From positions 1 through 38,191 of IMG/VR virus record IMGVR_UViG_2778261450_000003: DNA of 38,191 nt; one strand, 5' to 3'. Numbering within the stretch: position 1 is the stretch's first letter; every line of letters starts with the position of its first letter. The notes under the pieces were generated by a model, which saw only the letters and a program-made list of their open reading frames with translations, had not been told where the DNA came from and did no database searches. Below are positions 14,284 to 35,598 of this stretch, piece by piece. This DNA is from a virus. Taxonomy: Duplodnaviria; Heunggongvirae; Uroviricota; Caudoviricetes. The translations under genes were made by a program, and so were the position numbers.

Positions 14284-14347
14284 TTCCTTTTAAAGTCAAG
14301 AATAAGAGGGCTTAATAAGCCTGCAGGAAGGCTTATTAAGCGTAAAA

Positions 14348-14793: not shown

Positions 14794-14798
14794 TGCTG

Positions 14799-15095: not shown

Positions 15096-15098
15096 GGT

Positions 15099-16699: not shown

Positions 16700-16718
16700 G
16701 GTTTGTCTCCTGATTTTG

Positions 16719-17911: not shown

Positions 17912-17920
17912 ACCATTTCC

Positions 17921-18415: not shown

Positions 18416-18513
18416 GCTCACTCCGGGGAAAGGCGGGCTGACCGGTTTCCGCAGTGTGCTGATGGCTTTTGCCGGCACACCTCCACCGCGCCCGCCCGGT
18501 TGTTGGGAGTCGT

Positions 18514-19224
18514 TTACGTGCCCTGCAACGCGCGCAGTCTTGCGGCAATGCGCTGGCGCAGGGTTTTCACCTGAATTTTGGGATGCAGCCAGGCAGCCCG
18601 TTCCAGGCACTGGTCGGCCTGTTGCAGTCTCTCCGGATCGTTAATTGCACTGGCCAGCGGTTTACCGTCATCGCCGCGCAGCAGCAGGACGCCTGCAAAG
18701 CGCCAGTAGCGGGCAGCAAGGCGTTCATTCACGCGCCATTTGTCACGGATTTTTTCAAACACCTGCTGAAAATATGGCGCGATACTGTTCCCGCGTTCAG
18801 CTTCGGTTTCTGCCCATTCAAGAATGAAATGGGCCACAAACGTTGGCAGCTCGCTTTTGAAGTTCTCCGGCGTCTTTTGCCCCTGCTCAATGGCAATGTC
18901 AGCCCACCGCAGCGCCATCTCAAACTGCCCGGTATCGAACAGCCAGATGATGCAGTACACCAGAATGGGATTCTGATAGACGCGTTCCCCCTCCAGATAA
19001 GCCTGTGCGTGTGGCAGCCAGCGGGGCAGCAGCGTGTTCCGTTTGAATTCCAGCTTGTCAGACAGCAGCTCCATGTTGTGCAGTTGTCTGATGTCGTTAT
19101 TCAGTGCCAGCAGCTTAATGTGCTGGCTCTCTGTACTGACGGCGCTCCCGTCCGTTCTGGTCATGAGTGCTGCACGGCGCTCATCCATCTGTCGGGCACG
19201 TTGTCGCTGCATTGGCGTTGGCAT
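18514..19224 (-). CDS. terminase small (endonuclease) subunit, P2 gpM-like
   Basis: 236-aa ORF after the capsid gene; LLPRWLPHA region resembles the LPFWLPW segment remembered for gpM. Confidence 0.65.
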   Translation of the reverse strand: MPTPMQRQRARQMDERRAALMTRTDGSAVSTESQHIKLLALNNDIRQLHNMELLSDKLEFKRNTLLPRWLPHAQAYLEGERVYQNPILVYCIIWLFDTGQFEMALRWADIAIEQGQKTPENFKSELPTFVAHFILEWAETEAERGNSIAPYFQQVFEKIRDKWRVNERLAARYWRFAGVLLLRGDDGKPLASAINDPERLQQADQCLERAAWLHPKIQVKTLRQRIAARLRALQGT

Positions 19225-19241
19225 ACCGCGCGCTCCGTTTA

Positions 19242-20255
19242 TCAGGCGATGGTTACCGCAGACTCATCCACGGCAGCATATAAATCCGGATCGCCCAGGG
19301 CGTAACCCTCATAACGCCAGTATGAGTTTTCGAACTGTTTGCGATCGCCCACATCTTCTGCCTTACGACGGCGGGACCCTTTCAGCGTCAGGATCTGCAG
19401 ATTTGGCAGCATGGTCACTACCATACGCTTGCCCGGCATAAACGGCGGAATGATGGCCTTGCGGCCTGCGATGTTCTTCGTCAGCAGCTGTGCGGCCACT
19501 TTTTCGGTAGGCTTGTCCTCTTTGTTGTAGAGGCGCAGTTCTTCAGCAGCCACAAGGTCTGCGCCAACCAGCACGGTAAGGCGAGGATCGTTGTGATACT
19601 GCGCCGGGATGTAAGTGCGGATCAGGTCTGAGGCCATAGCGTCAAGACCGACATAATCACCGCCTTCGCCCAGGGTAACGGCGTCCGTCAGAATACGGGA
19701 GGTATTGCCGGGCTGTTCTCCCCATTTTCTGGCGATTTCATGCCATCCGATGTTGACGTCTTCACCGTTCGGATTACTTTCAGGATCGGAGTTTTCTGCG
19801 GCTGTTTTACCGTTAAAGCCAATGCGCAGCATATCCAGCGCAAAGTTGGTGACGGCGGCGGAGTTCATCAGATTGAAAAATTCCTGCGGGCTGCCGGCAT
19901 TCGCCCAGATGGCGAGTTGTTCCCAGGTGATCACACAGCAGGAATCAGTTTCAACGAGTTTGAATTCGTTGCCTTTGATGCCCGAACCTTTGGCGAAACG
20001 ACCACTTTTCACGCGACCAGTGCGCAGCGTGGATTCGCCCACGGTGACGACCTGCCCCTGCGGGTGCGGAACATCCATGCAGGTGGTGAAATTCAGAAAC
20101 TCCGTGCTTTCCAGCAGGGCTTTACGCAGAGCAATACTGCGTGGCTCGGTCAGCGAAAAGAAACGATCGCTTGATTTCCCGCAGTCACTGAATGTTTTTT
20201 GCAGTTCGCTGATGTACTGATTAACCAGCTTTTGTGCTTCTGGTGTCATGTTCAT
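19242..20255 (-). CDS. major capsid protein, P2 gpN-like
   Basis: 337-aa ORF with GGAGAG RBS directly after the scaffold gene; O-N-M-L order as in P2. Confidence 0.75.
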   Translation of the reverse strand: MNMTPEAQKLVNQYISELQKTFSDCGKSSDRFFSLTEPRSIALRKALLESTEFLNFTTCMDVPHPQGQVVTVGESTLRTGRVKSGRFAKGSGIKGNEFKLVETDSCCVITWEQLAIWANAGSPQEFFNLMNSAAVTNFALDMLRIGFNGKTAAENSDPESNPNGEDVNIGWHEIARKWGEQPGNTSRILTDAVTLGEGGDYVGLDAMASDLIRTYIPAQYHNDPRLTVLVGADLVAAEELRLYNKEDKPTEKVAAQLLTKNIAGRKAIIPPFMPGKRMVVTMLPNLQILTLKGSRRRKAEDVGDRKQFENSYWRYEGYALGDPDLYAAVDESAVTIA

Positions 20256-20269
20256 TGCGTTCTCTCCGG

Positions 20270-21160
20270 TTACACCAGGTTAAAAGTTTCGCCACCGGCC
20301 GGATTGTTGCCCGGCAGCTTCGTGGCGTCCTTGCTGAGTTCAGCAAATGCGGTTTCCATACTGGTGACTTTCTCCGCGATGGCGTTCACCGTGGAGAACA
20401 GCTTTTCGCCCTGCTCGGTGGTCAGCGTGAAGGTTTTGTCGTCTTTGTTGTTCTGTTCTGCGTTGTCCTGCCCCTGATCGCCGGTGCTGCCTTCCGGCTT
20501 GTTATCACCGGTATCTTTCGGGGCATCCTTCGCGCTGAACTGCGCGACGTTTTCTTCCAGTTTGCCCAAGCGTTCGCCGGTTTTGTTGATGGCGTCCATC
20601 AACTGACCGAACTGTTTTTCGTTCATATCGTTTTCCTGTTTGTTGCGTCCCACGGAGAAAAGGCCGGAAAAGAAACTGCGTTTGGCCTGCTCGTCGTCAG
20701 ACTGCAGCGTGAAATTCAGTTCTTCTGCATTCCCCATGTGAATGGAGTCTCCCTGCGAAAATTGCAGGCGGGTGGTGTTGATGCTGGCCGGAGTGTCAGT
20801 TACAGCGATGCCGGATACAAAGAATTTGCCTGTTCCCAGGTAGTTTTCCTTTACCTCTATGGAGGTGAAAAGTTTTTGCCCGGCCTCGTTGGCTTCGGTC
20901 AGAAAGCGGTTGGGTATCAGGCGGGCTTTCAGTTGCACTTTATCACCGGCTTTTTCTGCCTTCAGTGCATCAACAAGACCATAGTTATTGGTGAAAGCAC
21001 GCCAGCCGGCGCTGGCATGAAACGGCCAGAGCATGGCAGTGTGTTCGTCCGGGTTATAAACCTCGGCGGCATCCGTCAGCCACTTTGGATCAATTTCCCG
21101 ACCGTCGATGGTGGGGCCTGAAGTGGCTACGACCACCCAGTCTGTTTTCAGTTTCGACAT
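20270..21160 (-). CDS. capsid scaffolding protein, P2 gpO-like
   Basis: 296-aa ORF with an acidic, coiled-coil-like C-terminal half; first gene of the - strand late operon, divergent from the terminase. Confidence 0.75.
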   Translation of the reverse strand: MSKLKTDWVVVATSGPTIDGREIDPKWLTDAAEVYNPDEHTAMLWPFHASAGWRAFTNNYGLVDALKAEKAGDKVQLKARLIPNRFLTEANEAGQKLFTSIEVKENYLGTGKFFVSGIAVTDTPASINTTRLQFSQGDSIHMGNAEELNFTLQSDDEQAKRSFFSGLFSVGRNKQENDMNEKQFGQLMDAINKTGERLGKLEENVAQFSAKDAPKDTGDNKPEGSTGDQGQDNAEQNNKDDKTFTLTTEQGEKLFSTVNAIAEKVTSMETAFAELSKDATKLPGNNPAGGETFNLV

Positions 21161-21242
21161 CTGAATTAACCCGCTGATAAAAATTAACTGAGCGTTATTT
21201 AAGTGGGAAATAAAAAAACCGTCACCTGATTAATTTCCGGTG

Positions 21243-21270
21243 TTTTCGGATATACGCATATATCCGAAAA
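21243..21270. promoter_or_regulatory. inverted repeat (12-bp arms TTTTCGGATATA / TATATCCGAAAA, 4-bp spacer) in the divergent late promoter region
   Basis: Perfect 12-bp arms between the scaffold and terminase start codons; a further CCGAAA copy follows. Confidence 0.4.
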
Positions 21271-21354
21271 ATACCGAAACGCGATATTCGTTTTTAAAAA
21301 GGCCTTTACTGAAAATGCATAAATTAAAATGGCATCAGCAGAGATTGATTATTT

Positions 21355-23142
21355 ATGGCGTACTCTGATGAAGTGATTGCTGCAGCAAAATCACTCTATC
21401 TGAAAAGGCACACCCCAAAAGAAATACAAAAGAAGCTCGGACTGAACAGCCCGCGAATTGTTTATTACTGGGCGACAAAGTTTGAGTGGTACACACAGCT
21501 TAATACTGAGGGCGTGGAGGATGTCATCGCCCGGCGTCTCGCTGTACTGGCGGAGCGTGACCATAAAACCCAGGAAGAGCACGATGAACTCGATCGCCTG
21601 ATTGGCCACCACGTCAAACTGATGTCGGTCAGGAACAAGCACACAGAACGAATGGCCGAGATAGAACGAATGGGGGCTGATATTCCCCGGTCTGGCCGTT
21701 ATGGAAAAGAAGAGCGCGGAGAAAAAGACGCGGATAAGAAAGAGCGTCGTCGTAAAGCTAATGATGTGTCAGGGCTGACAGCAGAGAGTTTTGAGCCGTT
21801 TACCAAAAAACTGTTCGCTTATCAGTTGCATCTGCGTGAAAACAAATTCCGTCGTGTACGCAACCTGCTTAAATCGCGCCAGATTGGGGCGACGTATTAC
21901 TTCGCGTTTGAGGCGTTCGAAGATGCGGTATTAACCGGCGACACACAGATATTTTTATCGGCATCAAAACGTCAGGCCGAAGTGTTCCGCACCTATATCG
22001 TTAAGATTGCACAGACGGAATTTGGCATTCCCATTAAAGGCAACCCGGTTAAGTTAAGTAATCTGGCTGAACTGTATTTTCTGGCGACCAACAGTAACAC
22101 GGCGCAGTCAAACAGCGGCCACCTGTACATTGACGAATATCTGTGGATCCCCGGCTTTCGTCGCCTCAATGAAGTGGCGTCCGGTATGGCCACCCACTCG
22201 CACTGGCGCATTACCTACTTCTCCACGCCGTCAACCAAAACCCATCAGGGCTATCCGTTCTGGTCTGGCGATGAATGGCGCAAAGGCGATCCGAAACGAA
22301 AAGGGGTTGAGTTTCCGTCCTTTGATGAGCTGCGCGATGGCGGGCGCGAATGCCCGGATGGCCAGTGGCGCTATGTGGTGACAATGGAAGATGCCATTGC
22401 CGGCGGCTTTAACCTTGCTGACATCAACGAACTGCGCGAGCGGTACAACGAAACAGCCTTCAATATGCTGTTTATGTGCGTGTTTGTGGATGACAAAGAG
22501 AGCGTCTTTAAATTCGATGACCTCGTGCGCTGTGGCGTTGATATCAGTACGTGGGAGGATTTTCACCCGGAAGATGCCATGCCATTTGGAAACCGTGAAG
22601 TGTGGGGCGGCTTTGACCCTGCGCGCTCCGGCGATAACGCCACGTTTGTGGTGCTGGCACCACCGCTGGTTGCGGCAGAACGATTCCGCGTGCTGGAAAA
22701 ACACCACTGGCGGAGTATGTCATTCCAGTTTATGGCAGAGCGTATCCGCAGCATTAAGGCGCGCTATAACATGACGTTTATCGGCATTGATGTTACCGGG
22801 CTTGGCTATGGTGTCTTTGAGCTGGTTCAGGGATTTGCCCGCCGTGAAACAGTGGCCATTCATTACAGTGTTGAATCCAAAAACCGCCTGGTGATGAAGA
22901 TGCTGGATCTGATTTACGCCAACCGTATTGAGTGGGATGAGGAAGCCACAGATATTCCGGCATCATTTCTGGCCATCCGTCAGGAATCCACCAACAGTGG
23001 CAATAAAGTTACTTTTACCGCTGAACGTAGCGAAGAAACCGGGCACGCTGACATCTTCTTTGCCATCGCCCATGCAGCAAGTAACGAACCCCTGAACTAT
23101 AAGCACAAGCGCAAATCAACATGGATCCTGCCAGATGAGTAA
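21355..23142 (+). CDS. terminase large (ATPase) subunit, P2 gpP-like
   Basis: 595-aa ORF divergent from the capsid operon and overlapping the portal gene start. Confidence 0.8.
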   Translation: MAYSDEVIAAAKSLYLKRHTPKEIQKKLGLNSPRIVYYWATKFEWYTQLNTEGVEDVIARRLAVLAERDHKTQEEHDELDRLIGHHVKLMSVRNKHTERMAEIERMGADIPRSGRYGKEERGEKDADKKERRRKANDVSGLTAESFEPFTKKLFAYQLHLRENKFRRVRNLLKSRQIGATYYFAFEAFEDAVLTGDTQIFLSASKRQAEVFRTYIVKIAQTEFGIPIKGNPVKLSNLAELYFLATNSNTAQSNSGHLYIDEYLWIPGFRRLNEVASGMATHSHWRITYFSTPSTKTHQGYPFWSGDEWRKGDPKRKGVEFPSFDELRDGGRECPDGQWRYVVTMEDAIAGGFNLADINELRERYNETAFNMLFMCVFVDDKESVFKFDDLVRCGVDISTWEDFHPEDAMPFGNREVWGGFDPARSGDNATFVVLAPPLVAAERFRVLEKHHWRSMSFQFMAERIRSIKARYNMTFIGIDVTGLGYGVFELVQGFARRETVAIHYSVESKNRLVMKMLDLIYANRIEWDEEATDIPASFLAIRQESTNSGNKVTFTAERSEETGHADIFFAIAHAASNEPLNYKHKRKSTWILPDE

Positions 23143-24169
23143 AAAGAAGAAATATTCTGTGACACACGATGCCGGAGCAAAAAAAACGGCCGGCAAAATG
23201 ACGTTTATTGAATTTGGTGACCCCGAACCGGTTGCTGCATGGGGCTGTTATTACGGCTCGCTGTGGGATGGTTATAACGGCTGGTACACGCCGCCCATTG
23301 AGCGCATGGATCTCGCCATGTTGTCCAATATCGCGCCGTATCACGGCGCAGTATTGCGTGCGCGCGTCAATATGATTATGCAGGGTTTTCGGGGCGGTGG
23401 GGGTATGACACACGCCGCCATGGCGGCAGCAGTGACCAATCTGCTGATATTCGGGGATATGGGGCTGCTTAAAGTACGTAACGGCTTCGGTCGGGTGGTG
23501 CGTCTGCATACGTTGCCTTCTCTGTATCTGCGGCGTAACAACGAGGGAGGCACGGTGATTGTGCAGGCGGCACTGGAAGATCTCGTGTATCCGCCAGGCG
23601 AAGTGGTGTTCGTGGCCATTTATGACCCGCAACAGCAGGTTTACGGTGTCCCGGATTATATCCACGGGATGGAATCCGCCATGCTGAATGTGGATGCCAC
23701 CCGCTTTCGCCGCAAGTATTACAAGAACGGCGCACACCTCGGTTATATCCTGTATTCCACTGACCCGGATATGACTCCCGAGCTCGAGGCGGAATTCCGT
23801 AAAAAGATAGAGGGGTCAAAAGGGGCGGGCAATTTTAAATCCATGTTCATCAATATACCGGGCGGAGACAAAGAAGGGGTTAAGGTGATTCCTATCGGGG
23901 ATTCAGGTACAAAAGATGAGTTCCTGAATATAAAAACCATCAGTGCTCAGGATCAGCTCGTGGCGCACCGTTTTCCACCCGGACTTGCCGGCATCATTCC
24001 CGCAAATACGGCCGGGCTTGGCGACCCACTTAAATCCCGCGAGGCATATTACAGGGATGAGGTTATTCCGATGCGCCGTCTGATTATGGAGGGGATCAAC
24101 AGTGACCCGGATATCAGGCGACTGGGGGAGGTGAAATTTATTCTTGAATTTAACGAATCCACGGAGTGA
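23135..24169 (+). CDS. portal (capsid vertex) protein, P2 gpQ-like
   Basis: 344-aa ORF, the length of P2 gpQ; overlaps the terminase 3' end by 8 nt. Confidence 0.8.
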   Translation: MSKKKKYSVTHDAGAKKTAGKMTFIEFGDPEPVAAWGCYYGSLWDGYNGWYTPPIERMDLAMLSNIAPYHGAVLRARVNMIMQGFRGGGGMTHAAMAAAVTNLLIFGDMGLLKVRNGFGRVVRLHTLPSLYLRRNNEGGTVIVQAALEDLVYPPGEVVFVAIYDPQQQVYGVPDYIHGMESAMLNVDATRFRRKYYKNGAHLGYILYSTDPDMTPELEAEFRKKIEGSKGAGNFKSMFINIPGGDKEGVKVIPIGDSGTKDEFLNIKTISAQDQLVAHRFPPGLAGIIPANTAGLGDPLKSREAYYRDEVIPMRRLIMEGINSDPDIRRLGEVKFILEFNESTE

Positions 24170-24234
24170 TGTGCGGTATGGGGAAAGAGCGGGTAAAATC
24201 GGCGGCAGTAAAACGCTGTTCCGGGAGGTGGAAA

Positions 24235-24492
24235 ATGCGCAGACAGAAAGCGCGATGTCATTGCTGCGGTGCACATGCAGTGATTGAGAAAACAGCCTGG
24301 AAAACCGATCAGTTTGCTGATGTGTATTACCGTTGCACCCGTCTCGAGTGCGGACATACCTGGGTGATGAATCTGACCTACTCGCACACACTGGTGCCCA
24401 GCGGGCTGGATAACGGTGTGTTAAAGCTGTTGATTGAACGGATGCGCCCGGAAGAAAAACAAATGGCGCTGGAATTGTTGCAAGCGGGTTAG
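24235..24492 (+). CDS. Ogr/Delta-family zinc-finger late-gene transcriptional activator
   Basis: 85 aa from the internal ATG at 24235 with GGGAGGTG RBS; C-x-CC ... C-x4-C pattern (CHCCGAHA ... CTRLEC) matching the Ogr Cys4 finger; the track's longer ORF overlaps the portal gene. Confidence 0.65.
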   Translation: MRRQKARCHCCGAHAVIEKTAWKTDQFADVYYRCTRLECGHTWVMNLTYSHTLVPSGLDNGVLKLLIERMRPEEKQMALELLQAG

Positions 24493-24735
24493 TGTTTTTT
24501 TTGGGGGGTAAGGTAGCGCCAACCTCTCAGCTGGCGTGGTTGGAGTCCCAGTCTAACGACGAAGTGACCAACTAGGCGGTATCAACTTTTTTTGGGAGCC
24601 GCCTCTGAATCCCCAAAATATTCAATACAGTCTGCAAGTGAAAAGTAACGTTTAATGAACTTAAATTCAACGATAACCGTATTTGCGATATGGGTTCACC
24701 TTGACTACAGCGACTGACGCGCTTCGCTTGTCCAA

Positions 24736-24780
24736 CCCGGAACGGGCGCACAAAGAATTTGCGCACCCGTTCCGGGTTTC
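24736..24780. terminator. strong bidirectional intrinsic terminator
   Basis: 11-bp GC-rich stem CCCGGAACGGG / CCCGTTCCGGG with a short loop, followed by TTT on the + strand; lies between the convergent ogr and the 95-aa gene. Confidence 0.6.
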
Positions 24781-24796
24781 ATTCCCTGATATTCAG

Positions 24797-25084
24797 TCAG
24801 CGTGGATAAATTAACTTGAATTTGAGGAAGTTTTGTTTAATCCAGTCTTTAACATTTTCCCTTCCCTGAATACCTGATGGTAAGTGTTCGTGAATCATCC
24901 ATTCAACAATGAGTTTTTCTTTCAGGGTGTATGCCTTAAAGGAATTAAGCATATTTAGTACTTCATAACCTTCTTTGCGGCTAAACCGATGGCGGTCAGC
25001 AGCGGTTTTCGTGGGATCATCTCCTGGCAAAGCAGTCCAACTGTAATCGTCATAAAATAAATCGCTTCTTTTGATATCGGTCAT
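24797..25084 (-). CDS. hypothetical protein, second gene of a two-gene accessory cassette (AT-rich)
   Basis: 95-aa ORF with AAAGGA RBS; markedly AT-rich relative to the prophage; followed by the strong terminator; no family recognised. Confidence 0.5.
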   Translation of the reverse strand: MTDIKRSDLFYDDYSWTALPGDDPTKTAADRHRFSRKEGYEVLNMLNSFKAYTLKEKLIVEWMIHEHLPSGIQGRENVKDWIKQNFLKFKLIYPR

Positions 25085-26056: not shown

Positions 26057-27016
26057 TTACTCCTTGTCCATTGCGTACAGCCCATTAACCAGAGCAAACT
26101 GTGGCACCCCGTCCGCGATGAAAGTCGCATTAACTCCGCAGGCTTCGCGGATAGCGGGTGCCACAATATCAGCCCCTCCACCGACAACCATCACCCGTCC
26201 GTACCCCGAAAAACCAGCCAGCGCACGGATCACACGTTGTTTCAGTGTTTCTTCCTTTTCATGAATAACCGCCATCAGGTTGGCGTAATGCGCGTCATTG
26301 TGAATGTGCTGGCGCAGCCAGGCTTCATCGTGGCGATGTTCGATAATGGTATTGGCGATGTGGTGACTGGTGCGCATACCGTTAGTGGCCATCACCGACA
26401 GTACAGCATCGGCCATCAGAGAAACGCCTACGTGTGGATCGCAAAACACCTGGCTGATACCTGCCAGTTGTCCCTGAACCTTTGCCACATCCAGCGTGGT
26501 TCCGCCTAAATCAACAATAAGCAGGGATTCAAACGGACTCATGTCAGCCAGCGCCTTAAAGCCTGCCGGAATGGATTCAGGCATAACCCGCACGTTACGG
26601 ATAGTGAATGCTTTGCCGTTCTGGTACTCCACCGGGCGCATGACGTTCGCTTTTTTTCGGTTGATGTTTGCCATGTCCGGCTGTGCGTTTGTGTCGAAAT
26701 ATTCGCTCAGTGGCAGGGTGACAACCACATCCACTTCCTGTGGCGTGATGCCTGATTTGACCAGTGCGTGATGAATGGCAATGACATTCACATCACTGTA
26801 CTGGTATTGCGTGTCGGTCGTCTGGACAAAGCGATCGCTGACCGGATCAAAACCATAGCGCACGCTATCAAGCATGTAGTTCGCGGGCTGCATGCCACCG
26901 AACGGCGCAGACCATTCCGACTTGAAGCTGTTCGGGCTGATGGCGTTGCGGCGTTCGCTGTTCTCAGTCCATGCCAGCTTGATGTTGGTTGAGCCGTCGT
27001 CGATGTAAATTTTCAT
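26057..27016 (-). CDS. parM: ParM/StbA actin-like plasmid segregation ATPase
   Basis: 319-aa ORF with AAGGAA RBS; N-terminus MKIYIDDGSTNIKLAW...ISPNSFK...YQYSDVNVIAIHHAL matches remembered R1 ParM (MLVFIDDGSTNIKLQW...ISPNSFK...WQYSDVNVVAVHHAL). Confidence 0.85.
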   Translation of the reverse strand: MKIYIDDGSTNIKLAWTENSERRNAISPNSFKSEWSAPFGGMQPANYMLDSVRYGFDPVSDRFVQTTDTQYQYSDVNVIAIHHALVKSGITPQEVDVVVTLPLSEYFDTNAQPDMANINRKKANVMRPVEYQNGKAFTIRNVRVMPESIPAGFKALADMSPFESLLIVDLGGTTLDVAKVQGQLAGISQVFCDPHVGVSLMADAVLSVMATNGMRTSHHIANTIIEHRHDEAWLRQHIHNDAHYANLMAVIHEKEETLKQRVIRALAGFSGYGRVMVVGGGADIVAPAIREACGVNATFIADGVPQFALVNGLYAMDKE

Positions 27017-27051
27017 GTCGATTTTCCTTATGTTGATTAATTAATCGTTTA

Positions 27052-27142
27052 CGGGATTCTGAAATCCCGCTTTTGCCTGTTTTGTGCGCGCTTCATATAT
27101 CGCGGCACGTTTTTTGCTCATTTACGGGATTTGTGAATCCCG
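27052..27142. promoter_or_regulatory. two copies of the palindrome CGGGATT-N4-AATCCCG flanking the parM promoter (candidate parC operator/centromere)
   Basis: Copies at 27052-27069 and 27125-27142, each preceded by TTTACG, centres 73 bp apart; the second lies in the 3' end of the replication gene. Confidence 0.4.
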
Positions 27143-29915
27143 TTTCTGTCTGTTTTTTGTTTCCACTGGTCAGGCCACCCCGCAGCAGGTCTGCTTTGCG
27201 GCGGGCGCGTTCAGTGGTTTCACTGATTCTCTGTGCGTGCTCTGCGTCGCGGATGGCGCGCAGCATGTCAGAAAGCACGGTAACGGGTGTTTTCATGGTG
27301 TTCTGGTCCTGCTGAAGTGTGGATGCCAGGCGTGCGGCGGCTTCAGGGTCTGATGCCCCCAGCTGTTCCAGATAGCTGGCGACCGGGTTATGGCGGATCT
27401 CCGTGCTGCTTACGCCGTGATTACGGCTCAGGCGTTGCCAGAGCTGCGTGATTCGGCTGTCCGGGCGGGTATCCGGTTTGCGTACAATTTCAAATCCCTG
27501 CGGTGCAATGATGCTGCCGTCAACGTACAGACTGCCGCCCCGTAACAGGTGCTGCATCTGCTGTTCACCAATATGCAGGCCGAGAGATTCGGCAGACTCC
27601 CGCCATTCTTTAGCGAGTAACTCGTGGTTATCAGGCAAAGGCTGTGGCTGTTTGCGGCTCTGTGTCCAGTTCTGCATTTCATCACTGCTGTTTTTGGCCT
27701 GTTTGTCACGCAGCGAACGCATCAGCGCCCGGCGTTCGTGCCGTTTCAGTGAGCGCATCCATTCATTCACTTCAATGCCGTCAGGAAGCTGCGGCCACGG
27801 TGCTGGCCGTTCTTCCGGCTGTTCTGTCCCGTTGTTGTCCGTTTCCTGTACACGGGGACAGTTATTGCCACGAGTCCAAGGGGCGGCAGGGCCGCCCTGA
27901 AGGTCAAAACCATTTTCGCGGGCGCTGTCTTCCGCTTCCGGTTTACGTCTTACCAGCTTCCAGTTATCCGGATGTGTGCACACACGGGAAGACTCCCCGA
28001 TGAGCGGCGACCAGATCCCGTAAATCTGTACGCTCTGTTCGCCGTAATCGTTCAGCTCATCTGCGAGGTCGTAGGCCGTGCGAATCAGGTAGTCTTTGCG
28101 TGGAACAAGTACGCCGCCCTGTTTCTCTATGTAGGAGGCAAAACACCCGGCATCAGCGGCAGCGAGTACCGCATCCATTGCGTCATTTTCCAGACGTTGT
28201 GGTCCCTGTGGGTTGCGGGCCATCTGACAGGCAAGGCGGCGCAGTTCACGCCACACCTGACGGGAGGGGATGCCAAAGAACTGGAACTGGCGGACCCGGT
28301 GAAGGCGCGCCCAGCCGATGGCGCGCTCCACGCTTTCTGCCATCGTCTTTCCTGATTCGTCGTCGATGCGCGGTTTGCCTGTTTTCGGGTCAATGCCATC
28401 CACGGCGTGGCTGTCCAGGTTCTTTCCGATGTAGGTGGCGATGTAGCTGGTCGGCGTACCTTTCGAACCGTCGACGTACTCTGCCTTAAAGCGCGGAGTT
28501 ATGTCATTACCCAGCTCGTGGCGGTCTTCGCGAATGGCAATATCACGGGTGATGTCCACGATGCTGTCGATTTCTTCAGGATGTGCAAAGACCATCATGT
28601 GCCAGTGCACGGTGCCGTCATGGTGAGGCTCCACCGTGCGAATGCCATACCAGCGCAGACCGTCGCGGTTCAGTTTTTTGCGGACCGCCTTAAAAAACGT
28701 GTTAACCAGGTAATCGCTGGAATCGCGCATGGTGGCCCCGTTCCATTTGGGGTTAGGGTGACCGTTCTCCGTTGTTGCGTGGTACTTCGAAGGGGTGGTG
28801 ACAGTCAGAAACACCGCTCTGTCGCCACGGGCTTCGGCCAGAAGCTCCAGCCCCTTCATGGTGGCCATCATTTCTGCCTTACGGTGAACCGGGTTACTTA
28901 CTCCCGCGTAATACACTGTCTCGAGATCAATCGTGAACCCGTCTTCGTTTTCCAGCATGAAACTTTTCAGGAAATCGCGTGTTTTCTCGCGCTGTGCGCG
29001 AAACTCGCTTAACGCGTTCTGGCTCAGATAGGGCGATGTTTTTCTGGAAACCAGACAGGCGGCGCGGAGTTGTTCTTCTCTCCACTCGCAACGTAACAGC
29101 CACAGTTTGCGTTTCCACCATTCCGCACAGGTCAGGCGAAGGATTGCTCCCGGCAGCAGCTCCGTGTCCGGTTCGTTCCTCCGGTCTTTGTCTGTTGTCA
29201 GTGCTTCATAATGCGGAGGCATGGCGTGCAGGTGTAACGCCATGCGGGCCAGCATCTGATACGCCTTCAGCGTTACATCCATGGTCAGCTCGCCATCAGT
29301 CGCACCAAAGCCATCGCAGAGCTTTTCGAAGGTGCTGCTGAACATCGCCGCCGTCATGGTGGCCAGCGTCTGTATCTGGTGTTTGTTGAGCTGCGGCAGG
29401 TAAAGCAAATCGTCCAGGCGTTCGCGTCCGGCAAGGGAGCGATAACCCGGTGTCAGCCAGCGTCCGTCAGTGCGATCCAGACGTTCGAATATTTTGCGCA
29501 GGGTTCCGCGTGCATAGCGTTCCGCCTGCCAGCTCTTTTTGCCTTTCCGGCGATCGGCTTCCTGTTTTTTGCGCAGGAAGGAGAGGTGGCGAATAAGCGG
29601 ATCGCGCAGATAGGATGGCAGCAGGCGCAGCGAGGCCATGGCTTCATCCACCGCGCCGCGTGCCTGTTTTCTGGCTTCTCTGGCCAGTGTGATGGTTTTG
29701 TCCTGTTTTTCCTGTGCGTCCAGGCTTTTATTAATCAGGTTGCCCAGCGGTGTGGCGGAGAACGCCGCATCAGCTATTTCCTGGCGGCGCTCGTTCTCTT
29801 CCCGGTAGGCATCCAGCCAGGAGGAAAGCGCGGATTCAGGAGCGGGGATCCCCGTTCCTTCACGCCCCACTGCGTGGCGCGGTTGTTGCCAGTCCCTGAT
29901 GTACTCTGCCGTCAT
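27093..29915 (-). CDS. replication initiation endonuclease, P2 gpA-like
   Basis: 940-aa ORF, the largest early gene; contains HHDGTVHWHMMVF, resembling HUH rolling-circle endonuclease metal-binding motifs; position upstream of the late region as in P2. Confidence 0.75.
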   Translation of the reverse strand: MTAEYIRDWQQPRHAVGREGTGIPAPESALSSWLDAYREENERRQEIADAAFSATPLGNLINKSLDAQEKQDKTITLAREARKQARGAVDEAMASLRLLPSYLRDPLIRHLSFLRKKQEADRRKGKKSWQAERYARGTLRKIFERLDRTDGRWLTPGYRSLAGRERLDDLLYLPQLNKHQIQTLATMTAAMFSSTFEKLCDGFGATDGELTMDVTLKAYQMLARMALHLHAMPPHYEALTTDKDRRNEPDTELLPGAILRLTCAEWWKRKLWLLRCEWREEQLRAACLVSRKTSPYLSQNALSEFRAQREKTRDFLKSFMLENEDGFTIDLETVYYAGVSNPVHRKAEMMATMKGLELLAEARGDRAVFLTVTTPSKYHATTENGHPNPKWNGATMRDSSDYLVNTFFKAVRKKLNRDGLRWYGIRTVEPHHDGTVHWHMMVFAHPEEIDSIVDITRDIAIREDRHELGNDITPRFKAEYVDGSKGTPTSYIATYIGKNLDSHAVDGIDPKTGKPRIDDESGKTMAESVERAIGWARLHRVRQFQFFGIPSRQVWRELRRLACQMARNPQGPQRLENDAMDAVLAAADAGCFASYIEKQGGVLVPRKDYLIRTAYDLADELNDYGEQSVQIYGIWSPLIGESSRVCTHPDNWKLVRRKPEAEDSARENGFDLQGGPAAPWTRGNNCPRVQETDNNGTEQPEERPAPWPQLPDGIEVNEWMRSLKRHERRALMRSLRDKQAKNSSDEMQNWTQSRKQPQPLPDNHELLAKEWRESAESLGLHIGEQQMQHLLRGGSLYVDGSIIAPQGFEIVRKPDTRPDSRITQLWQRLSRNHGVSSTEIRHNPVASYLEQLGASDPEAAARLASTLQQDQNTMKTPVTVLSDMLRAIRDAEHAQRISETTERARRKADLLRGGLTSGNKKQTETGFTNPVNEQKTCRDI

Positions 29916-29921
29916 AGTGAT

Positions 29922-30287
29922 TTACTTCGTCATGCCATTCAGGGTGTCGCGGCAGACGGCAGCCAGCCGCTGAATCTCCAGCGCAGTGTCTTCTGTGTCG
30001 GCATGGTGGTGTGTGATGCGGATGCTGTCGGCAATCACATCGACGATCGCAGAGGATGGGCGCTGGTAAATGCCAATAACGGACGGGGTGCCACCTTCAA
30101 TGCGGTAAAGCCTGTAATTTCCCTCGTGGCTGTCAATCATGTAGCGACCATCAATAACAATCTTTCCGTCAGCGAGCTGCGGTACAGGCAGGGATTTCAG
30201 GTACATGTCATAACGTTCACGCACGCGAACGGCAAGATCACGCTCTGTGTTGAGCAGGTATTCAAGAAAGTCGTTGGCGAGAATCAT
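29922..30287 (-). CDS. hypothetical early protein
   Basis: 121-aa ORF with AAGAGGA RBS immediately upstream of the replication gene. Confidence 0.45.
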   Translation of the reverse strand: MILANDFLEYLLNTERDLAVRVRERYDMYLKSLPVPQLADGKIVIDGRYMIDSHEGNYRLYRIEGGTPSVIGIYQRPSSAIVDVIADSIRITHHHADTEDTALEIQRLAAVCRDTLNGMTK

Positions 30288-30359
30288 TGCGGCAATCCTC
30301 TTGTTACAGATGTGCGAAGGCCTCCCGCCGCAAGGTGCAGGAAAGGCCCGGAACAGGAA

Positions 30360-30590
30360 TTAATGGAGTTTGTTTTGCTGCTGGATGAGATCCTGAAGAG
30401 ACAGGAGGTCTTCCGCCAGATAGCTGAATACAGCGGCGCAGTAGTCGGCTGAAATAGTACTGTTGAGCCTGTGCAATGCGTTGGATTGCATGATAAAGGC
30501 GATGTGTGCAGCGCGGGTGAGTCTGCGGTCGATTTCAGTCTGGATGTGGCGACGCTCCGCGATAGCGCGGTGCTGTTTGCGGTTTGCCAT
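30360..30590 (-). CDS. hypothetical small early protein
   Basis: 76-aa ORF with AGAGG RBS. Confidence 0.4.
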   Translation of the reverse strand: MANRKQHRAIAERRHIQTEIDRRLTRAAHIAFIMQSNALHRLNSTISADYCAAVFSYLAEDLLSLQDLIQQQNKLH

Positions 30591-30957
30591 GATATGTGGC
30601 CTCTTGTAGTAAGTTGTGAAAACTCACCATCCAGAGCTGCGAAACTGTGGGTGGCGAGACGTACGAGGTTCGCAGTACCGGCTACAAGAGATCCCGGCCC
30701 GACCGAAGTCGGCCCCGTACGCCCCGCCATAATTCTGACGCGAAAAAAACGTGGCAATACAGTACACACAAAAAAACCGCTGGCGCGGTTGTGCGCTCTT
30801 GTAGTCAGCAGGCTGCGAAACCCGGCACCCGTTTTATGAGGTGCAGCGAAAATGTAACCTGACTGATTGCGGCATGGCAAGCGGTTTTTTTGTGAGAACG
30901 GCATACTAAAAAATCCTGATACTGCTCCGGCCAGCGGTTTGCACTGGCCGGGTGTCA

Positions 30958-31788
30958 TTACTTCACGGGAACGAACGGAACAGCGGTGTTACTGGTCATG
31001 TATTGCGGCAGCGTGCCGTTCCATTTGTTGATCGCTTCCAGCTCCATAACGCCGGGATTCTGGCGCAGAGCTTCGCCGCGTAAACGAATGGCGTCGGCTT
31101 CAGCCTGGGCTTTTGTGCGAATGGCATCGGCCTGTCCGGCAGCTTCTGCGCGCAACATGTTGGCTTCTGCTTCGCGTTGCTTGACTTCCTGTTCGCGTTG
31201 CAGGGTTTTCTGGTTTGCCGTGACTTTGGCGTTAATGCTGTCGATAACGGTTGGCGGATATTCCGGTTTACCGACATAAGAGAGGCTCATGACCTGAATA
31301 CCGATGGGGGTCATCTCTTCCTGAATATCTTTAAGTGCTGAATCCAGCAGTTCAGACTTACCACCGTCGATAAACTTATCGGTGGTCATTTTGCTGGCCA
31401 GTCGGTTGAGTGCATCGGCGATCTTCTGGCGCAGGTCAGTGTCGGTAATGTCGTCCACGCCTTTGCGGTAGGTCTGAAACACCGTGGTAACTTTGGATGG
31501 ATCAACTTTGTAGGCCACGCCGATGTGATAGCCGATGGTTGTGCCGTCACTCATCTGGAAGTTGAACGGCTCATCGTAAGTCTTCATTTGTTTGAAGGTC
31601 GGGAAGATGTAAACCTCTGTATTCCAGCCTGTCCAGTAGCGGCCAACGCCAACCACTTCACCGACGCCTTTGTCGTCGCCCAGTTTGTTGACTTTGATGC
31701 CCACATTACCTGGCTCAACGCGATCGCAACCAACCAGCAGGATGGCGGCAAAAAGCGGGAGAATCTGAAAGAGTTTGAATTTCTTCAT
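30958..31788 (-). CDS. SPFH/band-7 (stomatin-prohibitin-like) lipoprotein
   Basis: 276-aa ORF; N-terminal signal with lipobox LLVGC; central SPFH-like region and Ala/Glu/Arg-rich coiled-coil C-terminus typical of band-7 proteins. Confidence 0.7.
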   Translation of the reverse strand: MKKFKLFQILPLFAAILLVGCDRVEPGNVGIKVNKLGDDKGVGEVVGVGRYWTGWNTEVYIFPTFKQMKTYDEPFNFQMSDGTTIGYHIGVAYKVDPSKVTTVFQTYRKGVDDITDTDLRQKIADALNRLASKMTTDKFIDGGKSELLDSALKDIQEEMTPIGIQVMSLSYVGKPEYPPTVIDSINAKVTANQKTLQREQEVKQREAEANMLRAEAAGQADAIRTKAQAEADAIRLRGEALRQNPGVMELEAINKWNGTLPQYMTSNTAVPFVPVK

Positions 31789-31988
31789 TGTTTGATTTCC
31801 TTGATGTACTTACTGAAAAGGCGAACAACGCCTGCCGGGTACAGCATGGCAATGAAAATTCCCAGCAATACCAGGAAGGAGCTGTCTGATGAAATCATTC
31901 GGGGGAGTAGTCCTGCATACAGAATGAGAGAGACGAGGACGCATACCAGCGCCCACATGTATGCGCGAAACCAGGTCTTTTTGTTCAT
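31785..31988 (-). CDS. small two-helix membrane protein coupled to the SPFH gene
   Basis: 67-aa ORF with two hydrophobic segments; its stop overlaps the SPFH ATG (ATGA). Confidence 0.5.
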   Translation of the reverse strand: MNKKTWFRAYMWALVCVLVSLILYAGLLPRMISSDSSFLVLLGIFIAMLYPAGVVRLFSKYIKEIKQ

Positions 31989-31999
31989 ATCGCGGTCCT

Positions 32000-32299
32000 T
32001 TACTGGTTAAGGAAAAAATCGAAAACGTTGTCGATGCGTTGCAGCAGCTCCTGCTGCATTGCTTCCGGCGTTTCTGATTCACCTGGTGACTCCAGCGTCG
32101 CGCAAAAATCCTTGATTTCATGATGGAGTGTCAGACGAATGGCAGGAGCCATGGTTCTGGCGTGCTCCAGCTCATCCAGCAGTGCCAGCACGGCAGATGG
32201 CGAGAGCATTGCGCGAAACGCCAGTAATTTTTGATGCGTTGCCATTCGTTGCAGGTCAGTCGCCAGTTCGCGTAGTTCCTGGTGGTTGATGGTGCTCAT
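32000..32299 (-). CDS. hypothetical early protein
   Basis: 99-aa ORF in the early operon; no family recognised. Confidence 0.4.
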   Translation of the reverse strand: MSTINHQELRELATDLQRMATHQKLLAFRAMLSPSAVLALLDELEHARTMAPAIRLTLHHEIKDFCATLESPGESETPEAMQQELLQRIDNVFDFFLNQ

Positions 32300-32541
32300 G
32301 CTCTGGCTTCCTTCAGTAGCTGGTTAAACAAGTGAGTAAGCGGGTTGCCACACCCGAACTGCATCGGGTTTACCTGGTAAGAAAAGCGACCACCTGTTTT
32401 GCGCTCTTTTCTTATGACTGAACCGCTGCGCCAGAGTCGGCGTAACTCCGCATTAATGGCTGTGGTTGGGGTATTCAGTGCTGCGGCGATTTCTCCACCG
32501 CTACAACCCGGATTGGCGGCGATGTAGTCCAGAATGGTCAT
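32296..32541 (-). CDS. small winged-helix-like DNA-binding protein (putative)
   Basis: 81-aa ORF; GCSGGEIAAALNTPTTAINAELRRLWRSGSV resembles an HTH/winged-helix recognition unit; overlaps neighbours by 4 nt. Confidence 0.4.
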   Translation of the reverse strand: MTILDYIAANPGCSGGEIAAALNTPTTAINAELRRLWRSGSVIRKERKTGGRFSYQVNPMQFGCGNPLTHLFNQLLKEARA

Positions 32542-32741
32542 CTGCGTGACTCCTGTACCAGTCTGATAAGATTCACCTGCACCACGTTGGTGGCGCAGAA
32601 GTAAGTGTCGTCAGTGAGATAAATGTGATGCGCGTCAGGTTGCGAACGGTGACGGTCGATCGTTTTAATCAGCCGTTCGTCAACTTCGTATTCACGCCCT
32701 CTGGAGGTGAAACGAATGACGGAAAAACGCTTAATTGCCAT
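32538..32741 (-). CDS. hypothetical small protein
   Basis: 67-aa ORF overlapping the downstream gene by 4 nt. Confidence 0.35.
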   Translation of the reverse strand: MAIKRFSVIRFTSRGREYEVDERLIKTIDRHRSQPDAHHIYLTDDTYFCATNVVQVNLIRLVQESRR

Positions 32742-32764
32742 TGCGCCCCCTTTGTCCAGTAACC

Positions 32765-33175
32765 CTATGCGTTAAATACGGTGTGTTGGGCGTCATCAAT
32801 GAATGCAACTTGAGAGCGCTCTATCAGGCGGAGATTTGTCAGAATCTCTGATTCCCTTATGGGGTGAGGAGTGATCAGGTATTTATCCTGTAATCCGGCG
32901 ATAATGGTGTATCGCTGTAGCTCCGAGCCAATTGTGTAAATAAGGCGTCCGGTGTTAGACAAATCCAGTCCGGTGACTGGTTGTGTTCTGAGAACCGCCA
33001 GTTCAGCATCCTGTTTTGCGATAATTTCGGCTGCTTCTGCCGTGACTCTTGCGACTATCAGTGTGTGGGTTGCGACGTCCATATGTGCATTTGCCACGGC
33101 TTTTTTCGCTACTTCGTTTTCTGTCTTTGAAATTTCTTTCAGTGCTCTGATGATACCTTCTTCTTTTGCGTGCAT
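32765..33175 (-). CDS. hypothetical early protein
   Basis: 136-aa ORF; no family recognised. Confidence 0.4.
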   Translation of the reverse strand: MHAKEEGIIRALKEISKTENEVAKKAVANAHMDVATHTLIVARVTAEAAEIIAKQDAELAVLRTQPVTGLDLSNTGRLIYTIGSELQRYTIIAGLQDKYLITPHPIRESEILTNLRLIERSQVAFIDDAQHTVFNA

Positions 33176-33268
33176 TTTTGTATCTCCGTTATTTGCGTGT
33201 GCGAATACCCCCGTTAATACGGATGGTTTTCACGTTTTCTTATTTAATTTGATGTTTTATTTGTATCG

Positions 33269-33382
33269 TTATTCACCAGTGAAAAAGCGTTCAATCTTTT
33301 TTACTGAATGAATAATTCGCATAATCCCAATGGCGCAGGCCACCGAAATAATCAGAACAAGCCATGAGATAAATATACTCAT
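33269..33382 (-). CDS. small hydrophobic peptide (37 aa, single predicted TM)
   Basis: ORF MSIFISWLVLIISVACAIGIMRIIHSVKKIERFFTGE; ATG overlaps the stop of the 80-aa gene (ATGA); below the ORF-track cutoff. Confidence 0.3.
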   Translation of the reverse strand: MSIFISWLVLIISVACAIGIMRIIHSVKKIERFFTGE

Positions 33383-33621
33383 GCAATATTCCCCAGCTTA
33401 TACGGTTCAATATGTTCCCCGCATTCTGCGGCACAGATCAGCTCGGAAAGTTCGTTAAGTGCATCCAGATCATCAGCGTAAAAAGCCACGTCATACAGAC
33501 TCCGGATTGCCCTGGTCAATGAGTCACGGGCTGCACGTTCAGCATGAGCGCCTGATGCACTTAAGCGAAAATAAAAACGCTCAAGTGCTTTATTAATGAG
33601 AGTTTTATATTCTTTGCCCAT
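33379..33621 (-). CDS. hypothetical small protein
   Basis: 80-aa ORF in the early operon. Confidence 0.4.
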   Translation of the reverse strand: MGKEYKTLINKALERFYFRLSASGAHAERAARDSLTRAIRSLYDVAFYADDLDALNELSELICAAECGEHIEPYKLGNIA

Positions 33622-33632
33622 CGCAACGCCCT

Positions 33633-33911
33633 TTAATCTGCTTTCTGAATTTCAGCTTCTGAATCCATACAAATAATTTCGATATAGGGTTCATCGCCAT
33701 TAACCTGACGTGCCTTTTCAGCTTCGCTAATGATTTCTCGTACGGTCTGGTACGGAAGCTCCACAGTCAGGCGCGTACCGTTCAGATAAACGTAAGTAGC
33801 TGCGTTTTTTTCGGATGGAACAACTCCGTCAATGGCTGATGCGCGTAATAACAGTTCACCGCGAAAATCAATAAAACGGATAAATACACCTTGTGCATGC
33901 TCTTTGGTCAT
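33633..33911 (-). CDS. hypothetical small protein
   Basis: 92 aa from the internal ATG at 33911 with AGGTG RBS (the track's ORF starts upstream on TTG). Confidence 0.4.
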   Translation of the reverse strand: MTKEHAQGVFIRFIDFRGELLLRASAIDGVVPSEKNAATYVYLNGTRLTVELPYQTVREIISEAEKARQVNGDEPYIEIICMDSEAEIQKAD

Positions 33912-33921
33912 AAAGCACCTG

Positions 33922-34272
33922 TTATAAATCAGCCTGTTTAATAAAACTTTGCCCGCGAAGCAGACGATCAACCGTGCGAAGTGCTTCGTATAATGTGAAA
34001 TCCTGCCCGAACTGATTGTCGCCGTTGCTCAGTGCAAAAATGCGGTTTCCGGTAAATGGGTTGCGCTGGCATCTGTGGACCACGATTCCAGCCTTCTCAA
34101 TCAGCCAGGTGTGCTCGCCGATTTGTTTTACAGCGTGGCCATCCGGTGTTGCGTGTGTTTCGCTCAGGCTATAGCGAGAGCTGCTGCGTGATGCACTGGT
34201 GGCGAAACGGTTAGCATGACGTTCCGCCCCGTTGCGGAATCGCTGCCGTGAAGAATTACGTCGTTGCTTCAT
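33922..34272 (-). CDS. hypothetical basic protein
   Basis: 116 aa from the internal ATG at 34272; the start is uncertain. Confidence 0.35.
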   Translation of the reverse strand: MKQRRNSSRQRFRNGAERHANRFATSASRSSSRYSLSETHATPDGHAVKQIGEHTWLIEKAGIVVHRCQRNPFTGNRIFALSNGDNQFGQDFTLYEALRTVDRLLRGQSFIKQADL

Positions 34273-34414
34273 ACAAAAAATATCCTGCTGCTGTTGCGAA
34301 TTTGTGCCGGGTTTTAGCCATGCCCGGCGCATGGTTTTGTGGTATTTTTCCACCGCCCGCAGTCTTGAAGGGGCTGTAAAGGGCGCGTGTTCAACCAACC
34401 ACAAAGGAATAAAT

Positions 34415-35012: not shown

Positions 35013-35474
35013 TTATAGCCCTGCCTGCAGTGCACTGATGCTATTGCGTTTTAGAACCCGATGCTCTTTACCGGTTGTGCGGCGATAAGTCTTCTTGTCA
35101 CGCATCAGACGATCAATGTAGTGTTTTTCTTCTGGAGTGATGAGAGCGCGGCAATGAGCAACAGCTTTCCAGTATTCTTGCAACATGATGAAGCGTTTAG
35201 GGCGCTTTGACCCGGGCATGCCTTCTCTATGAACTGGCACCTGCGCACGATCCATCAGGTTGCGCACCGATTTGAGGGTACGACCAGTTAGATAAGCAAA
35301 CTCTTCCGGAGTGGCGAAGATTTGTTTTTGTAGCTCTTCCAGGCTGATGTCTCTGATGCGCGCAGCTTGTGTTTCTGTCATTTTGCAGGTACGCAGAGCT
35401 CGTCCGTTGTCTAGCGGGAACTGACGTAAAAAATGAGTTTCCATATTTAATTCGTTTTCTCGCATTTCTTTCAT
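35013..35474 (-). CDS. Cox-like early regulator with N-terminal extension
   Basis: 153 aa from the ATG at 35474 (GGAG RBS); C-terminal half (TPEEFAYLTGRTLKSVRNLMDRAQVPV...W) resembles P2 Cox (QEFAKLIGKSTGAVRRMIDKGKLPV...W); divergent from the repressor gene. Confidence 0.5.
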   Translation of the reverse strand: MKEMRENELNMETHFLRQFPLDNGRALRTCKMTETQAARIRDISLEELQKQIFATPEEFAYLTGRTLKSVRNLMDRAQVPVHREGMPGSKRPKRFIMLQEYWKAVAHCRALITPEEKHYIDRLMRDKKTYRRTTGKEHRVLKRNSISALQAGL

Positions 35475-35598
35475 TTGATAAACTCCACTGCTTGAGGCTT
35501 GTTGAGGCATGTTTAGCCCAGCAAGCTCTTGGTGTTATGAGCGGTCAACGCCGCTTGCGAGTGTCAATTGATGTATACAATGAGAGATCTGACATATT

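Follow-up and report, generated by a model that had tools for sequence, protein, structure and literature searches.

SPFH/Band_7 proteins such as HflK/C, erlin, prohibitin, stomatin, flotillin and QmcA-YbbJ build closed cages, and to our knowledge every full-length SPFH protein solved so far forms one. HflK/C, prohibitin and erlin all corral membrane proteases or degradation machinery, and HflK/C, the orientation of which was reportedly established by Chiba, Ito and Akiyama in 2006, is the only SPFH complex of Escherichia coli that we know of on the periplasmic side of the membrane. Here we describe an SPFH lipoprotein gene, together with the small membrane-protein gene that overlaps its start (the partner), in a virus of the Caudoviricetes (IMG/VR record IMGVR_UViG_2778261450_000003, positions 1 to 38,191; this whole stretch of 38,191 nucleotides (nt) is referred to as the window). 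Comparisons of sequence identify the pair as a self-contained, horizontally mobile two-gene phage module, and we put at roughly 55% the probability that it specifies a periplasm-facing inner-membrane SPFH cage and its dedicated partner, early in lytic growth.

The existence of the two genes is not new, because they are already annotated in the records of Escherichia phage P88 (Xuanwuvirus, Peduoviridae) as gp11 and gp12 (“membrane protein” and “lipoprotein” in NC_026014, and “putative SPFH domain protein” in KP063541). P88 carries this very pair at the corresponding place of its early operon, without structural difference; the two proteins are 98.5% and 99.6% identical to those of the window, and the DNA is 93% identical over 30300..32400. 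The records give names only, and a description of the pairing was not found. Searches of the literature did not find a functional study of a phage SPFH lipoprotein and returned annotation remarks and two speculations only; an analogy with HflK/C-FtsH is in print for a LUZ24-like homologue, as speculation only (PMC8540360). A survey of Pseudomonas aeruginosa SPFH proteins does not mention phages. Two other papers were set aside: the “band 7” of a phiCbK paper refers to gel bands, and prohibitin appears in an SdiA paper in the reference list only.

A phage lipoprotein with the element order of cage-forming SPFH proteins

An initial annotation, made by a model from the DNA letters, had proposed a 67-amino-acid (aa) two-helix membrane protein that is ATGA-coupled to a 276-aa SPFH-domain lipoprotein with a coiled-coil tail, and each of these elements held up. 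The two open reading frames (ORFs) are joined by a 4-nt ATGA overlap at 31785..31788 (Table 1). Among natural alleles, the ratio of nonsynonymous to synonymous substitution rates (dN/dS) is 0.03 for the SPFH gene and 0.28-0.29 for the partner ORF (two allele groups), so that both are real genes under purifying selection. The 276-aa protein matches the Pfam Band_7/SPFH profile (PF01145) with E = 3.1e-31 and 109.2 bits (cutoff 23.6), residues 23-209 covering profile positions 2-176 of 176, and the PHROG family phrog_200 “lipoprotein” with E = 2.6e-112 at profile positions 81-359 of 379.

The N-terminus of the SPFH protein reads MKKFKLFQILPLFAAILLVGC, then DR. Residues 1-21 end in L-V-G-C, in agreement with the lipobox pattern [LVI][ASTVI][GAS]C, and the lipobox Cys, Cys21 here, is invariant in nine divergent phage homologues. 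Asp at position +2 is the classical inner-membrane retention signal of Enterobacteriaceae lipoproteins; the enterobacterial members examined have Asp at this position, except PVP-SE1 (Glu) and phiEa104 (Asn). The most conserved positions of the SPFH protein are V24, G27, G30 and G37, which are membrane-proximal, and a C-terminal K-W-x-G-x-x-P motif, of which K255, W256, G258 and P261 are invariant in the nine homologues.

In an AlphaFold2 model (predicted local distance difference test score, pLDDT, of 75.6) the SPFH domain occupies residues 20-176 and is followed by a helix at 179-243 and a low-confidence C-terminus. The annotated coiled-coil tail thus corresponds to a single helix of 65 residues, rich in Ala, Gln, Arg and Glu. 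Foldseek aligned the model over its full length (250-300 columns) with HflC/HflK (the best match; 7vhq, 4e-13), erlin 1/2, prohibitin, stomatin, flotillin and QmcA-YbbJ (8z5g). Anchor, SPFH domain, long helix and C-terminal segment are therefore present in the order typical of cage-forming SPFH members, and the architecture proposed for the SPFH module is likely to be correct. By sequence, significant matches among solved structures were limited to HflK (1.2e-4, weak) and a prohibitin-2 fragment. Identity with HflK or HflC was rejected, since the protein falls far under the NCBIfam equivalog cutoffs (hflC, 25.7 bits vs. 134.4; hflK, 23.5 bits vs. 159.4), is a single subunit and has a neighbour without an SPFH domain. 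We also rejected the labels “serine protease”, “putative transposase” and “transposase fusion protein” carried by homologues in Stx2, phiP27, LUZ24-like and FelixO1-like phages; Band_7 is the sole domain detected, and the labels look like propagated annotation errors for that reason.

A two-helix partner with a conserved loop

The partner has two hydrophobic segments (residues ~9-27 and 38-55) separated by a 10-residue loop that is net neutral, and its N- and C-terminal tails carry three and four Lys/Arg residues, respectively. Because basic tails and a neutral loop flank the two segments, we predict a hairpin with both termini in the cytoplasm. It matches phrog_1130 “membrane protein” with E = 1.3e-22, in line with the two-helix membrane protein first proposed. 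Partners share the loop motif P-x-[LMI]-[IV]-S-x-x-[DS]-[ST], and Pro29 is the sole invariant column among eight divergent partners.

Searches with the partner against Pfam (E <= 1) and profiles of solved structures gave sub-threshold hydrophobic matches only, for example RseC_MucC at 0.03. We considered whether the partner could be an NfeD protein and rejected this identity: PF01957 was unmatched in eight diverse partners even at E <= 1, no solved-structure match was obtained, and 67 aa is too short for an oligonucleotide/oligosaccharide-binding fold.

Conserved pairing and natural fusions

A partner-type ORF with the loop motif is present at 111 of 113 distinct IMG/VR loci, where it overlaps the SPFH gene by 4 nt in 91 cases and by 20 nt in 19. 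This co-occurrence, taken together with dN/dS, places the pair beyond chance. The 113 loci are close relatives (at least 83% identity), and a word-indexed protein search with the profile likewise listed only close relatives; diversity was therefore drawn from named phage records. A sequence search for the partner retrieved 24 phage records only, which inspection of the DNA indicates is an underestimate. Stx2_EH2201 and phiP27 have a two-helix ORF of 62 aa, missing from their annotation, that shares ATGA with the SPFH start, and a similar two-helix ORF precedes the SPFH gene in a P1 variant, KpCHEMY26, PAN70, PhiBP82.1 and, 140 nt upstream, PVP-SE1. In phiCbK the upstream ORF has three segments. 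Partner ORFs without annotation in public records, each of them overlapping the SPFH start, lie at L006 2816..3004 (Stx2_EH2201), NC_003356 3304..3492 (minus strand; phiP27) and MH445380 ~35313..35520 (P1 variant).

The surroundings of these pairs often hold further small membrane proteins. In Stx2 phages the partner is immediately preceded by a conserved 35-aa ORF with one helix (L006 2685..2792), which has a counterpart in phiP27, and the SPFH gene of PVP-SE1 stands amid several small membrane ORFs (gp115-119).

Gene fusion is classical evidence that two proteins act together, and in-frame fusions of partner and SPFH protein occur in ~16-18 of 113 analysable diverse representatives. In these, the two helices and the loop motif between them come first; a linker leads to a third hydrophobic segment, at the end of which stands a conserved Cys, and the SPFH domain follows; the loop Pro, the loop Ser and the Cys are invariant in 16 fusions, as are the W and G of the C-terminal motif. 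Two fusions were verified on phage-like contigs (encoding RtcB, a D5-type primase, an SNF2 helicase and many ORFans), and no plausible internal start was found in them. The length of phrog_200 (379 positions, matched here from position 81) is consistent with fused members in that family. An AlphaFold2 model of one fusion has three N-terminal helices, and these helices, with the positive-inside pattern, put the SPFH domain opposite the N-terminus, which argues for a periplasmic SPFH domain anchored in the inner membrane. We found no prior description of the conserved non-NfeD partner and its loop motif, of the recurrent fusions, or of the periplasmic inner-membrane topology that these sequences suggest for lytic and temperate phages alike.

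The SPFH family is widespread in lytic and temperate phages

The family is a phage family generally, found in lytic and temperate phages and not restricted to prophages. It was detected by tblastn in 385 phage records, and an exhaustive HMMER search gave 224 clusters (50% identity) at E <= 1e-30 and 953 at E <= 1e-10. We opened examples from KpCHEMY26 (N4-like, Schitoviridae), PVP-SE1 (rV5-like, Vequintavirinae), Ab22 (LUZ24-like, Bruynoghevirus), phiEa104 (FelixO1-like, Ounavirinae) and phiCbK (Dolichocephalovirinae), all from groups that we take to be lytic, in which the SPFH gene lies in early or middle regions that serve transcription, nucleotide metabolism and replication. Temperate examples include Burkholderia PhiBP82.1, Pseudomonas PAN70, P1 variants and Stx2 phages. 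Among complete E. coli genomes, 393 of 5,426 carry the SPFH gene and 145, including UTI89, the entire P88-type pair. SPFH folds occur in giant viruses too.

An accessory insert in a P88-like early operon

The window was initially said to carry the pair between small early genes and the replication genes, as membrane-associated cargo that is foreign to the canonical P2 early operon, and genome comparisons bear out the position and the cargo status. The insert is flanked on one side by an Ead/Ea22-like ORF (32000..32299) and on the other by an isrK/C4 RNA unit (30647..30844), beyond which lie the replication genes. No comparable SPFH gene was found in the P2 early operon, and the sister P88-like phages P884B11 and PV468777 lack exactly 30895..31999: their alignment with the window runs to the stop codon of the Ead/Ea22-like ORF and resumes from ...CACAAAAAAACCGC, with ~18 nt between. 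In Shae_phiSM the slot is occupied by a 552-nt “DNA binding protein” gene. Since sister phages are without the pair and the slot can be differently filled, the pair is a clean 1.1-kb accessory insert. P88 itself has the same insert. The junctions 31960..32002 and 30885..30900 are loosely similar (CATGAACAAAAAGACC at the 5′ end of the insert vs. CATGCACACACAAAAAAACC at the empty site of the sisters), which could be microhomology used in gain or loss of the insert.

The base composition of the insert was correctly described as that of the backbone (G+C 0.518 vs. 0.516 for the window; 43rd percentile of 1.1-kb windows). The old acquisition proposed from it does not follow from composition, and nucleotide identity to other E. 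coli phage copies is high, which instead suggests that phages sharing one gene pool still exchange them. Nucleotide identity over the SPFH core (30991..31737) is 91-93% in unrelated Stx2 phages and phiP27, in which the gene belongs to a leftward operon upstream of xis and int and differs in signal peptide, partner and 3′ end; the copy of P1-like phage-plasmids is 93% identical at the protein level.

At 26800..34278 the window is ~92-95% identical to the early/replication region of P88, and a search of 50,697 phage records found no close nucleotide relative of the rest. With P88-like nucleotide sequence confined to this segment, the prophage is a mosaic. In the structural region (1..25000; sheath, tube and tape measure by PHROGs) close nucleotide relatives are limited to tail-fibre pieces. 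Two further loci are of separate interest. Positions 702..1070 match at 92-93% a “MokW-like host killing” (hok/gef family) region of P88 and P884B11 and, on this similarity, are a probable stabiliser of toxin-antitoxin type near the prophage end; an Rfam search of this segment gave no RNA match at the gathering score. Downstream of the replication endonuclease lies a 319-aa ORF (26057..27016, minus strand) whose P88 counterpart is annotated “plasmid segregation protein ParM” and is followed there by a “partition protein”, an unusual plasmid-like partition pair for an integrated P2-like phage.

Expression context

The partner has a ribosome-binding site, AAGGA, 8 nt upstream of its ATG, which overlaps the stop codon of the Ead-like ORF. 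Consensus promoter scans of the window, a Stx2 phage and the P1 variant found no sigma-70-like site ahead of the pair. As the Cox early operon has the insert at its 3′ end, the pair would be made with the early lytic genes, and this arrangement makes it somewhat probable that transcription comes from the Cox-side early promoter upon infection or induction and that the pair is silent in the repressed lysogen.

Downstream of the insert, on the minus strand, lie an isrK-like RNA (30770..30844; 66.7 bits) and a C4 antisense RNA (30647..30734; 81.1 bits), which belong to an independent unit that has a promoter-like site (30880->30851) and a terminator (30790..30775) of its own. After C4 come a 76-aa P4-epsilon-like “Derepression” ORF (30360..30590, minus strand) and then the replication genes. 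isrK and C4 are structural counterparts of P4 seqA and CI RNA (PMC3632133), and from these matches the replication operon of this P2-like phage appears to begin with an RNA immunity unit of P4 type. A 224-aa ORF at 30284..30958 (minus strand) runs across both RNA genes, and its counterpart in P884B11 (L002 2985..3602) is a 618-nt gene annotated as “transcriptional regulator”; judged by their overlap with the RNA genes, both are probably spurious protein calls. The hairpin that follows the SPFH stop codon (Table 1) was rejected as a canonical terminator, as its U6 run comes 12 nt later and the terminator scan did not call it.

Table 1 Features of the SPFH module in the window (positions are those of the whole stretch)
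Feature	Position	Strand	Basis or remark
Accessory insert, 1.1 kb (partner gene, SPFH gene, 3′ hairpin)	30895..31999	minus	blastn and junction alignments vs. P884B11, PV468777, Shae_phiSM
Partner ORF, 67 aa	31785..31988	minus	ORF list; phrog_1130; two-helix inner-membrane hairpin, predicted N-in/C-in
Periplasmic loop LPRMISSDSS, partner residues 28-37	31878..31907	minus	most conserved part of the partner; predicted location
SPFH/Band_7 lipoprotein ORF, 276 aa	30958..31788	minus	Pfam Band_7, phrog_200, AlphaFold2, Foldseek, dN/dS
Lipoprotein signal peptide (residues 1-20) and Cys21, predicted lipid-modified	31726..31788	minus	lipobox LVGC, Asp22 at +2
Single long helix, residues 179-243 (65 residues)	31060..31254	minus	AlphaFold2; equivalent to SPFH-cage wall helix
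C-terminal motif K-W-N-G-T-L-P, residues 255-261	31006..31026	minus	conserved across homologues
G+C-rich hairpin after SPFH stop codon	30927..30951	minus	RNA fold -23.6 kcal/mol, z = -2.67; inside insert

A proposed periplasmic cage and the alternatives

Our favoured explanation begins with the anchor. The 276-aa protein would be exported and lipid-modified at Cys21, and in E. coli the mature lipoprotein would probably be retained in the inner membrane, because Asp follows Cys21, with its SPFH domain consequently facing the periplasm. SPFH chains would then join through the long helix and the C-terminal motif and enclose a patch of membrane under a closed cage like that of HflK/C. The partner hairpin, co-produced through the ATGA overlap, would serve as the dedicated membrane partner of the cage and contact it via the short conserved periplasmic loop. 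Such a cage might corral or shield inner-membrane components in the way that HflK/C does on FtsH, altering membrane-protein turnover or membrane organisation to the benefit of the phage. An HflK/C-like role is favoured because the nearest structural matches corral proteases and HflK/C stands alone on that side of the membrane; by this analogy we suggest an FtsH-type role for the cage, tentatively. With the same reserve, we raise the possibility that lytic and temperate phages of Gram-negative bacteria use this two-part, sometimes fused device early in infection to make an HflK/C mimic on the periplasmic face of the inner membrane, which would either capture FtsH (or some other conserved machine of that membrane) or close the membrane to incoming DNA.

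Several observations weigh against this proposal. Across the family the +2 residue is not constant, Ser or Thr being most frequent. The AlphaFold2 model is of a monomer, silent on assembly, and has pLDDT < 50 over the last 27 residues. The upstream ORF of Ab22 has one helix and the immediate upstream ORF of phiEa104 has none, so that the pairing with a two-helix protein is not uniform. The promoter scans are a crude consensus test, which makes expression in the lysogen possible. HflK/HflC is a two-protein hetero-oligomer with transmembrane anchors, whereas here there is one lipid-anchored SPFH protein, which scores 24-26 bits against equivalog cutoffs of 134-159. Finally, a 2026 paper states that the reason for the lipoprotein in phage genomes “remains unclear” (PMC13239085).

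The strongest competitor, which we regard as unlikely, is superinfection exclusion, in which the pair would act at the inner membrane to block entry of a second phage's genome, both in lytic growth and, perhaps, in the lysogen. A predicted envelope location, accessory status and patchy occurrence among sister phages would suit such a role, as would the early-gene position that recurs in lytic phages, known encoders of early exclusion proteins, and the frequent placement of the module in clusters of small membrane ORFs (gp115-119 of PVP-SE1; the 35-aa ORF of Stx2 phages and phiP27). Against it, no similarity to known exclusion proteins and no PADLOC match were found, and scans did not find the promoter of its own that lysogen expression would call for. 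Moreover, the SPFH gene has a dN/dS of 0.03 and is conserved from alpha- to gamma-proteobacterial phages; because purifying selection is this strong and conservation extends across distant hosts, a conserved host target or pure self-assembly fits better than an arms race.

A lysogenic-conversion or virulence lipoprotein acting on the bacterial surface or an animal host is improbable in our estimation. Pathogenic E. coli, UTI89 among them, and Stx2 phages carry the module, and a candidate relative is the prophage-borne HflK/C-like PM0222 of Pasteurella multocida, which was reported to be found in cells and outer-membrane vesicles, to engage Toll-like receptor 1/2 signalling and to have an effect on virulence (PMC9872710). 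This reading leaves unexplained the conservation of the family in lytic phages that infect bacteria of plants, soil and water; furthermore, a promoter of its own was not found, and Asp at +2 and the fusions favour the inner membrane over the cell surface.

The initial annotation had suggested an abortive-infection sensor, and in such a defence the cage would restrain a small pore-like partner until infection releases it and the membrane is depolarised. The pair is indeed cargo, and the partner, with two helices and a charged C-tail, looks like a small pore-former. A PADLOC-DB 2.0 scan of both proteins and three neighbours nevertheless gave nothing usable: the SPFH protein was unmatched, and the single hit of the partner is marginal (14 bits, E = 0.008, over 21 hydrophobic residues). 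We found no paper in the literature linking SPFH proteins to phage defence, and the family is widespread and conserved in lytic genera, which gain nothing from early host killing. The pair also lies within a lytic operon with no promoter-like site, unlike P2 old and tin. We consider this explanation very improbable, and while the observations and the cargo status reported in the initial annotation stand, its abortive-infection reading and its old acquisition are not supported.

A part in lysis timing, with the partner as a holin or antiholin (its size, its two helices and its charged C-terminus are like those of class II holins) or the larger protein, a lipoprotein with a long helix, as a spanin-like component, is just as improbable, as the pair lies outside the lysis cassette (P88, with the same pair, has a separate late cluster of holin, endolysin and DUF2570), matches no PHROG lysis family (phrog_1130 and phrog_200 being the only families matched), occupies early/middle gene regions in lytic phages, and encodes a lipoprotein that has no C-terminal membrane helix and whose Asp at +2 argues against the outer-membrane site needed by an o-spanin. 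We based this argument on the P88 cassette because no lysis genes were located in the window itself, where the ORFs tested (11.7-18.6 kb) proved to be tail/connector proteins and one small endolysin-like domain.

We thus return to the periplasmic cage with its dedicated partner as the preferred explanation. If correct, it would provide the first function for a viral SPFH protein, and, in the case of a cage that acts on FtsH or keeps DNA out, a new route by which phages take over or guard the bacterial envelope; if the cage is a generic membrane scaffold, the result is an ordinary annotation. For the window, the pair is mobile early-operon cargo and not a defence island. The module is small, common and strongly conserved, dispensable in P88-like phages and kept in several lytic genera, and the partner, its loop motif and the natural fusions offer concrete handles for experiments.

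Comparison with known systems

Among systems with a known role, P2 old, tin and Z/fun are likewise non-essential cargo of a P2-like prophage. Whereas old and tin lie on the opposite strand and have their own transcript starts, the SPFH pair shares the direction of the early lytic operon, lies packed among its genes, and has no promoter-like site by consensus scan. T4 Imm/Sp, T5 Llp and HK97 gp15 are small inner-membrane or periplasmic proteins or lipoproteins that are made early and act as exclusion factors; their likeness to the pair is one of function only, with no relation in sequence or fold found, and none has an SPFH domain.

HflK/HflC is the closest relative by structure: it gives the best full-length match, supplies with the prohibitin-2 fragment the sole significant sequence matches, and shares the predicted side of the membrane. 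It differs in its anchoring, with an N-terminal helix of its own where the phage protein has a predicted lipid anchor and a separate two-helix partner. In the SPFH-NfeD operons (QmcA-YbbJ, YqiK-YqiJ and the archaeal stomatin-STOPP) an SPFH gene is likewise coupled to a small membrane protein; the phage partner differs in having no NfeD domain, and the predicted orientation is periplasmic and not cytoplasmic. By sequence, the pair belongs to the SPFH superfamily and to PHROG families 200 and 1130, and, if our proposal holds, its small membrane protein would be an SPFH partner of a new type, different from NfeD.

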